Shown here one piece after another: positions 55,393 to 58,300 of a DNA stretch of 64,000 nt. Position numbers: made by a program. This stretch comes from Escherichia coli (GTDB lineage Bacteria; Pseudomonadota; Gammaproteobacteria; Enterobacterales; Enterobacteriaceae). Where the stretch lies: the NCBI RefSeq assembly GCF_003334305.1, contig NZ_QOWS01000012.1. One strand, given 5' to 3'. The first letter of the stretch is position 1, and every line of letters starts with the position of its first letter.

Positions 55393-58300
55393 TTAACATT
55401 TGTTGTTATTTTGCACGGTTTTTGTCGGGTATGGATTTGATGATTGCTGCGCAAATGCACGTTTTCAGGGCAATAATTGCCTGATTTTTGGGCAAGATAA
55501 TTAACGTTTTCGTATAGTAACAGAGTGAAAGTATTTTAAATCAAAGAATTAGATTTGTGCTTTAATCGCAAATTGCGATCTAAATCAAATTAATCGGTTA
55601 AAGATAACCGCAGCGGGGCCGACATAAACTCTGACAAGAAGTTAACAACCATATAACCTGCACAGGACGCGAACATGTCTTCTCATCCGTATGTCACCCA
55701 GCAAAATACCCCGCTGGCGGACGATACCACTCTGATGTCCACTACCGATCTGCAAAGCTATATCACTCATGCTAATGACACTTTTGTGCAGGTGAGCGGC
55801 TTTACCTTGCAAGAGTTACAAGGGCAGCCGCACAACATGGTGCGTCACCCGGATATGCCAAAAGCGGCGTTTGCGGATATGTGGTTCACCCTGAAAAAAG
55901 GGGAGCCCTGGAGCGGCATCGTGAAAAATCGCCGCAAAAATGGCGACCATTATTGGGTGCGGGCCAATGCGGTACCGATGGTGCGCGAGGGAAAAATCAG
56001 TGGCTATATGTCGATTCGTACCCGGGCGACGGATGAAGAGATTGCGGCGGTGGAGCCGCTGTACAAAGCGCTGAACGCCGGACGTACCAGTAAGCGTATT
56101 CATAAAGGCCTGGTGGTGCGTAAAGGCTGGCTGGGTAAACTGCCTTCATTACCGCTTCGCTGGCGGGCGCGTGGAGTGATGACCCTGATGTTTATCTTGC
56201 TGGCGGCCATGCTTTGGTTTGTTGCTGCCCCGGTGGTGACGTATTTCCTCTGTGTGTTAGTGGTATTGTTGGCAAGCACTTGTTTTGAATGGCAGATTGT
56301 GCGCCCGATAGAAAATGTCGCCCGTCAGGCACTGAAGGTGGCGACCGGAGAGCGTAATAGTGTTGAGCACCTGAATCGCAGCGATGAGCTGGGGCTGACA
56401 TTACGCGCGGTAGGGCAGCTTGGCCTGATGTGCCGTTGGCTAATTAACGATGTCTCAAGCCAGGTGTCCAGTGTCAGAAATGGCAGTGAGACGCTGGCGA
56501 AAGGCACCGATGAACTGAACGAACATACCCAGCAGACAGTTGATAACGTTCAGCAAACAGTGGCGACCATGAACCAAATGGCGGCGTCGGTGAAACAGAA
56601 CTCTGCCACGGCGTCGGCTGCCGATAAACTTTCTATCACCGCCAGTAATGCGGCAGTGCAGGGTGGGGAGGCGATGACCACGGTGATCAAGACAATGGAC
56701 GATATCGCCGACAGTACCCAGCGCATTGGCACCATTACTTCGCTGATTAACGATATTGCGTTTCAGACCAATATTCTGGCCCTGAATGCGGCGGTGGAAG
56801 CGGCGCGTGCCGGCGAACAGGGCAAAGGTTTTGCAGTGGTGGCAGGGGAAGTGCGTCATTTAGCCAGCCGCAGCGCTAATGCTGCCAACGATATTCGCAA
56901 GCTGATTGATGCCAGTGCTGATAAGGTGCAATCCGGTTCGCAGCAGGTACACGCCGCCGGACGGACGATGGAAGATATTGTGGCACAGGTGAAAAACGTC
57001 ACCCAGTTGATCGCCCAGATTAGCCATTCAACGCTGGAACAGGCCGATGGGCTTTCCAGCCTGACCCGTGCAGTGGATGAGCTTAACCTGATCACCCAGA
57101 AAAATGCCGAGCTGGTGGAAGAGAGTGCGCAGGTGTCGGCGATGGTGAAACACCGCGCCAGCCGACTGGAAGACGCGGTGACGGTGCTGCATTAATCGGT
57201 ATGCCGGATCCGGCGGTTGGAGCACAATGCCTGATGCGATGCTGGCGCATCTTATCAGGCCTGCGGGGTGTGTAGCGTGTGTAGGCCGGATAAGGCGCGT
57301 CAAGCGTCGCATCCGGCAATTGCACCGCGCCACTGGCGGATGCGGCGATTAATCCAGTTGCGTAATATCAAAAGCGGCGCGGTCGATCACCGCAATGATC
57401 TTTTTTATTTGTGCATCACTGATATCGCTCTGGTTGACGCGTAAATCCAGCACCGCTTTAAAATTATCCAGCGCCCGCTTCATTTGCGGGTTCTGGCGCA
57501 GCGCCGCGCCAACGCAACGCGCTTTGATGCGTTCTTCAATCATCTCCACCTGTTCGCGGTTTTCTTCCAGCCACTGCGCGCCTTGTTCGGTCAGCGCAAT
57601 CTGCTTCTTACCACCTTCCTCTTCGCGGATGGTAATCAGCGACTGCTCCTGCAGAAAATCCAGCGTTGGGTAGATGACGCCCGGGCTTGGGGTGTAATTC
57701 CCCTGGGTTAGGTTCTCAATCGCTTTAATCAATTCGTAACCGTGGCTGTCATCGCGCGAGAGAATATCCAGAATCACCAGACGCAATTCACCGTGACCAA
57801 AGAAACGTTGCCGACGACCGCCGCCGCGACCGTGGCGACCACCGCAGCATTGACCGTGTTCATGCTGGTGACCGTGTCCGCAGTGCTCGTGTTCTGACTT
57901 CTCACCTTTGCAGCAGCCCTCATGGCGTGGCTGGCCTTCATGTTTACAACACCCTTCGTGATGATGGCTCATATCAGCCTCCTTTTGCTTGATTAGATAT
58001 ATCTAATTTATATCTGATGTGAGCATTACTGCAAGTACAAAAATGATTTTTAAACGTGGAAGCACCTCACATCCAGGCCGGATAAGACGTTCACGCCGCA
58101 TCCGGCAGCATTGCTATGGCACTGAATGCCTTCACATACTTCAGATATATCAGTTCTACAAATCGCTTGCATTTATCATGATTAACAATCATTATCATTT
58201 ACGAAAATTATTTAGATATATCTGATTACTATCACGAAGGCGATAACAATGAATAACTCCCCCCGCTACCCGCAGCGCGTTCGCAATGATCTGCGCTTCC

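Follow-up and report, generated by a model that had tools for sequence, protein, structure and literature searches.

The nfeR-nfeF spacer and its palindromic motifs

We analysed a window of Escherichia coli chromosomal DNA (the whole stretch, 64,000 nucleotides), with a focus on the 276-bp spacer (57973-58248) between the divergent genes nfeR (yqjI) and nfeF (yqjH). nfeR occupies 57349-57972 on the minus strand and encodes a 207-residue PadR-family repressor, and nfeF occupies 58249-59013 on the plus strand and encodes a 254-residue NADPH-dependent ferric-chelate (siderophore) reductase. These are the flanking genes named in the original prediction, which had been made from the raw sequence, and both the open reading frames and the RefSeq annotation (NfeR for the repressor) bear this out. 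The prediction had also described YqjI as a PadR-type protein with a His/Cys-rich N-terminus. Both parts of this description hold, as residues 67-136 of NfeR match the Pfam PadR family (PF03551, E 4.3e-15) and the His/Cys-rich N-terminal tail reads MSHHHEGCCKHEGQPRHEGCCKGEKSEHEHCGHGHQHEHGQCCGG, opening with MSHHHEGCCKHEGQPRHEGCC. NfeR resembles solved PadR-family structures in the PDB, and its own structure is unsolved. According to the RefSeq annotation, the gene order in E. coli genomes is aer, nfeR, nfeF, tRNA-Ile, mug, and rpoD. Several E. coli chromosomes match the nfeR-nfeF stretch at 100% identity, and the stretch occurs in practically all of the 5,426 complete E. coli genomes.

One motif is located at each end of the spacer: TTAGATATATCTAA (= ttagatatatctaa) at 57993-58006 on the nfeR side, and TTAGATATATCTGA (= ttagatatatctga) at 58212-58225 on the nfeF side, both at exactly the coordinates predicted. 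Each had been described as a perfect palindrome. This is true of the nfeR-side copy, which is perfect even over 16 nt (ATTAGATATATCTAAT, 57992-58007), but not of the nfeF-side copy, which is self-complementary over the inner 10 nt only (AGATATATCT, 58214-58223). When up to two mismatches are allowed, the two motifs are the only matches in the window, while shuffled sequences are expected to give 0.11 matches and only 2 of 100 shuffles reach two. Of the 8-nt core GATATATC, the window holds four copies where 0.70 would be expected, and three of them are inside the spacer. The fourth copy, at 59386-59393, lies inside the mug coding region with flanks unlike those of the putative operators described below, and is best explained by chance. 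Three more features of the spacer went unmentioned in the first reading of the sequence: a half-site next to the nfeR-side palindrome, a third core copy, and a repetitive extragenic palindromic (REP) element.

Conservation of the motifs and the predicted promoters

By scanning one genome per species, we collected 32 loci from Escherichia, Citrobacter, Enterobacter, Lelliottia, Superficieibacter, and Raoultella. The divergent nfeR/nfeF pair is kept in every locus that extends far enough. The alignment, motif offsets, and conservation profile are based on 30 loci from the six genera, and conserved blocks are those with at least 90% conservation. Both motifs were found in all 30 enterobacterial spacers, which range from 130 to 276 bp in length. 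Where the nfeR start is cleanly called, 14-21 nt separate the nfeR-side motif from the nfeR ATG, and the nfeF-side motif has a distance of 19-23 nt to the nfeF ATG, apart from a single outlier at 32. Conservation across Enterobacteriaceae had been proposed as a check of the prediction, and the retention of both motifs at fixed offsets speaks in its favor. Only five blocks reach the conservation threshold: 57993-58015, which covers the nfeR-side palindrome and a second TATATCT 11 bp further on, and the shorter blocks 58030-58034, 58166-58171, 58186-58199, and 58210-58222. The distance between the centers of the two motifs is 96-230 bp across the genera, with no common helical phase.

The first of these blocks contains the nfeR-proximal operator candidate, the 16-nt palindrome ATTAGATATATCTAAT, within which GATATATCTAA is invariant among 22 distinct sequences from the six genera. 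An extra half-site, TATATCTGA, is located at 58009-58017. It is separated from the palindrome's right half by 11 bp, or one helical turn. Palindrome and half-site together form the composite TTnGATATATCTAAnnTATATCTaA, which is also the nfeR-side consensus of the 22 sequences. The TATATC at the half-site is nearly invariant across genera and is seen again in two distant homologues (L044 and L038). Sequence and conservation also point to a predicted minus-strand -10 hexamer for nfeR, TATAAA (58007-58012), located between the half-site and the palindrome. At a distance of 17-18 nt from it is a predicted minus-strand -35, CTTGCAG (58029-58035), whose position coincides with the conserved TGCAA at 58030-58034. 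The two elements plausibly constitute the nfeR promoter, with the start site inside the palindrome. We note that TATAAA is absent from the output of our consensus promoter scan, which demands T at position 6 of the hexamer.

On the nfeF side, the operator candidate ATTTAGATATATCTGA (58210-58225) includes the motif at 58212-58225 and its inner palindrome. Its first 13 nt, TTTAGATATATC (58210-58222), form the conserved block, and the consensus reads ATTTAGATATATC with a degenerate flank to its right. Upstream are a predicted plus-strand -35, CTTGCAT (58166-58172), of which CTTGCA (58166-58171) is conserved, and a predicted plus-strand -10, CATTAT (58190-58195), with a spacing of 17 nt from (C)TTGCAT. 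This pair is plausibly the nfeF promoter and would place the operator at roughly +10 to +25. A generic consensus scan offered another nfeF promoter, TTAACA/AATTAT at 58182-58211. Because AATTAT is not conserved in the alignment, we disfavor this candidate and prefer CTTGCA(T)/17 nt/CATTAT, and both promoters remain predictions.

A Fur box overlaps the predicted nfeF promoter. We scored every 19-mer of the window against the 19-bp Fur consensus GATAATGATAATCATTATC. The top score in the window, 14/19, is found at 58184-58202, tied with one other site. Further matches of 13/19, at 58178 and 58184, are offset from each other by 6 bp, and Fur sites typically show overlapping registers of this kind. 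The overlapping matches span 58172-58202, with a conserved core AATCATTATCATTT at 58186-58199, so that the box covers the spacer of the predicted nfeF promoter and overlaps its -10 CATTAT. This block is at least 90% conserved across the six genera and is retained in a more distant locus whose NfeR-like protein is 61% identical (L037). A Fur-like box had been predicted at 58176-58199. The best score in the window, matches mostly within these coordinates, and the conserved block all confirm it.

The core motif also accompanies the regulator in distant loci. Using the C-terminal 157 residues of NfeR as the query against 1.84 billion cluster representatives, we found 1,624 relatives at E ≤ 1e-10, and examined the genomic context of ten of them with 34-71% identity to NfeR. 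In all ten distant loci, AGATATATCT with at most one mismatch was found within 200 nt 5′ of the regulator gene, 30-95 nt from the ATG. The upstream windows, 1,840 nt in total, contain 11 such matches, versus three in the remaining 25,960 nt of these loci, and two of these three correspond to putative operators beside a SIP reductase gene. In two relatives, L037 and L040 (71% identity), the enterobacterial arrangement is complete, including the Fur box and both operators. The product of the divergent gene in L037 contains the Pfam domains FAD_binding_9 and SIP. The other eight share 34-46% identity with NfeR and come from loci of 52-69% G+C. Several distant loci show a further TATCT half-site 11 bp from the core, and several of the NfeR-like genes have no adjoining SIP-type reductase gene. 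Neighbors in L038/L039, L041, L045, L046, and L047 include genes for a KatG-like peroxidase, DUF3861 (twice), a Fur-family protein directly downstream, and DUF2218. Since the core is found upstream of every NfeR-like PadR gene examined, the motif is tied to the regulator and not to the reductase gene, and it therefore behaves as expected of an autoregulatory operator. These neighborhoods suggest that the NfeR-like subfamily may control more than siderophore reductases.

Third core copy and spacer polymorphism in E. coli

The third core copy, TTCAGATATATCAGTT, is located at 58140-58155, with GATATATC at 58144-58151, about 15 nt 5′ of the predicted nfeF -35. In place of the GATATATC of the window, K-12 has GACATATC and strain SCPM-O-B-8794 has GATGTTTC, and about half of the loci from other genera have no more than a TATATC half-site at this position. 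A role as a conserved operator is therefore not supported. Being degenerate in K-12 and other strains, it is without the constraint that acts on the two operators, and may be at most a weak, lineage-specific auxiliary site.

The REP element lies in the middle of the spacer (58076-58106, plus strand). Its 31-nt pattern occurs five times in the window (at 58076, 14577, 40452, 43369, and 43469) against none expected, and its hairpin has a folding energy of -13.7 kcal/mol (z -2.45). In the alignment of 30 sequences, the element is confined to Escherichia spacers.

The spacer varies considerably within E. coli. Nearly all E. coli genomes show at least 95% identity to a 1.8-kb query that takes in the two genes together with the spacer. 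For the spacer alone, identity to the window is at least 99% in 951 of 5,425 genomes and 80-90% in 3,729 of 5,425, including K-12 MG1655. The spacers of the window (57973-58248) and of K-12 MG1655 (L034, 301-587) are 276 and 287 bp long, respectively, with 84.5% identity, and an 11-bp indel beside the REP element separates the two haplotypes. Five E. coli haplotypes diverge by up to ~15%, and all five conserved blocks are identical among them. The variation is concentrated around the REP element, including the indel, and in the third core copy. The spacer is thus an unusually divergent intergenic region that holds invariant regulatory blocks.

Proposed control by NfeR and Fur

The observations above establish that the two motifs are non-random, strictly conserved in position and sequence, and found together with NfeR-like genes over a wide phylogenetic distance. 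On this sequence evidence, we consider it very probable that the spacer is the known divergent nfeR-nfeF control region and that the palindromes are operators for NfeR dimers. The original prediction had proposed that the palindromes are YqjI operators giving autoregulation and yqjH repression, a proposal now supported by the fixed offsets, the conservation, and the co-occurrence with NfeR-like genes.

Our analysis suggests a mechanism for both genes. At nfeR, the palindrome and the half-site bracket the predicted -10 and cover the predicted transcription start, so that bound NfeR would exclude RNA polymerase and cause autorepression. At nfeF, the operator would lie at or just 3′ of the predicted start site, and repression by occlusion would fit the geometry under either of the two predicted nfeF promoters. 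Fe2+-bound Fur, whose binding we take from the literature, would occupy the Fur box over the nfeF promoter core (the spacer and the predicted -10). Given the Fur box and the NfeR operator, full expression of nfeF would require both low iron, with Fur off, and the release of NfeR. Nickel binding to NfeR, which according to the literature involves the His/Cys-rich tail, would lower its affinity for DNA and derepress both genes. Nickel stress would thus be linked to iron acquisition, with nickel freeing NfeR and leading to more NfeF siderophore reductase.

Previous studies state that NfeR/YqjI represses nfeF/yqjH and that nickel relieves this repression, that deletion of nfeR in Klebsiella raises nfeF expression 85-fold, and that nfeR affects virulence in Klebsiella (PMC7981267). 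nfeF/yqjH has also been placed in the Fur regulon (PMC9501238). The region is therefore an already known NfeR/Fur control region and not novel, and the reading of the raw sequence, which correctly recognized a characterized two-repressor control region, has its value mainly as a positive control. The yqjH-yqjI region of K-12 has the same genes, divergence, Fur box, and REP element, with one repressor site per promoter, and its operator, Fur-box, and -35 blocks are identical to those of the window. It differs in that the window carries a different spacer haplotype, distinguished by the 11-bp indel near the REP element and by a third GATATATC that is perfect where K-12 has GACATATC. Control of yqjH-yqjI by YqjI/NfeR and Fur in E. 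coli K-12 is reportedly described by Wang, Wu & Outten in 2011 (J Bacteriol 193:563) and by Wang et al. in 2014 (J Bacteriol 196:3199), and DNase I footprints of NfeR and its release by nickel are reported to be published there. The 2014 paper reportedly describes one YqjI site per promoter, nearly 200 bp apart and cooperating, an extended footprint at the yqjI promoter, and an examination of the REP element. The palindrome and the half-site 11 bp away would offer a sequence reason for such an extended footprint.

Comparisons with known systems are consistent with this picture. Like the PadR repressors Bacillus subtilis PadR, Lactococcus LmrR, and Mycobacterium Rv3488, NfeR has a winged-helix PadR fold by sequence, and is probably a dimer that binds a dyad operator overlapping its own or a neighboring promoter and is released by a ligand. 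Unlike these proteins, NfeR has an apparently distinct operator core, AGATATATCT, and a metal as its effector, which it senses with the aid of a variable N-terminal tail rich in His, Cys, Gly, and Arg that is not known from typical PadR proteins. As in classical Fur-repressed promoters, a multi-register match to GATAATGATAATCATTATC lies over the promoter core and is conserved beside an iron-acquisition gene. At nfeF, however, Fur is partnered by a second, metal-specific repressor with its operator immediately downstream.

Several points weigh against NfeR operators at these positions, or against parts of the mechanism. The promoter hexamers are predicted only, and TTAACA/AATTAT would center the nfeF operator on the start site and not downstream of it. 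Helically phased looping between the operators is unsupported across genera, as the distances between them share no phase. Other proteins also use the region, and genomic SELEX (systematic evolution of ligands by exponential enrichment) with PepA in E. coli K-12 identified the nfeF-nfeR spacer as a single target (PMC8249747). This last result would fit an explanation in which another protein (PepA, IHF, or an AT-tract binder) binds the palindromes and NfeR binds elsewhere in the spacer, and so would the AT-rich composition of the motifs, which is like that of many nucleoid-protein sites. We consider this very unlikely, because the 10-nt core accompanies NfeR-like genes into unrelated G+C-rich genomes with different neighborhoods, which is unexpected for a PepA or IHF site. 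In addition, the operators and the Fur box are the only blocks of the spacer that are both conserved and palindromic.

The chance that the motifs function in the RNA, or are plain conserved core-promoter or 5′ untranslated region sequence without repressor binding, appears extremely small. Both motifs are at or just past the predicted starts and would be partly transcribed, and the composite site includes the predicted nfeR -10 hexamer. However, we reject RNA structure as the reason for the palindromes, since folds of the two 5′ regions are no better than those of shuffled sequences (z -0.24 and -0.93) and a 14-nt AT palindrome allows only a 4-5 bp A-U stem. Conserved promoter or leader sequence would also leave unexplained why the same dyad appears at two promoters and at 30-95 nt from the ATG in distant homologues. 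It is almost inconceivable that the two copies are the terminal inverted repeats of a small mobile element, similar to a miniature inverted-repeat transposable element, that brought the REP element into the spacer. The copies do flank the REP element, their wider arms (57992-58011 and 58207-58226) show 85% complementarity, and polymorphism of the spacer within E. coli is unusually high. But this polymorphism is limited to the flank of the REP element and the third copy, with no variation in the two motifs, and we reject a mobile-element origin because both motifs are present at the same start-codon offsets in genera that lack the REP element.

With NfeR operators as the preferred explanation, our analysis adds to the known system a half-site that may account for the larger site at the nfeR promoter, and an operator core conserved over a broad PadR subfamily. 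It also adds the polymorphism of the E. coli spacer, including the third core, among lineages in which the operators are invariant. We lean slightly towards the view that AGATATATCT is the shared operator of the whole NfeR-like PadR subfamily, and that the third core in E. coli could tune repression or site-to-site communication by lineage. We found no description of a subfamily-wide core or of a strain-variable third core in the literature accessible to search, and a literature text search with the motif sequences returned nothing relevant.

We also made several minor observations. The N-terminal tail is almost gone in the NfeR orthologues of Enterobacter and Lelliottia (L014, L016-L022, L024, and L025), which begin with MRHEHEGGGRR and are cysteine-free in this part. 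The tails of Citrobacter NfeR exceed the E. coli tail in length and repetitiveness. If the tail cysteines are required for the nickel response, the Enterobacter and Lelliottia orthologues may respond differently or sense something else. Shine-Dalgarno sequences can be read for both genes: AGGAGG at 57978-57983 on the minus strand, 5 nt 5′ of the nfeR ATG at 57972, and GAAGG at 58236-58240 on the plus strand for nfeF, the latter kept in the alignment of 30 sequences. Finally, the stretch between the aer and nfeR stop codons (57200-57345) is full of REP-like G+C-rich palindromes, such as ggccggataaggcgcgtcaagcgtcgcatccggc, and is probably a cluster of the bacterial interspersed mosaic element type.

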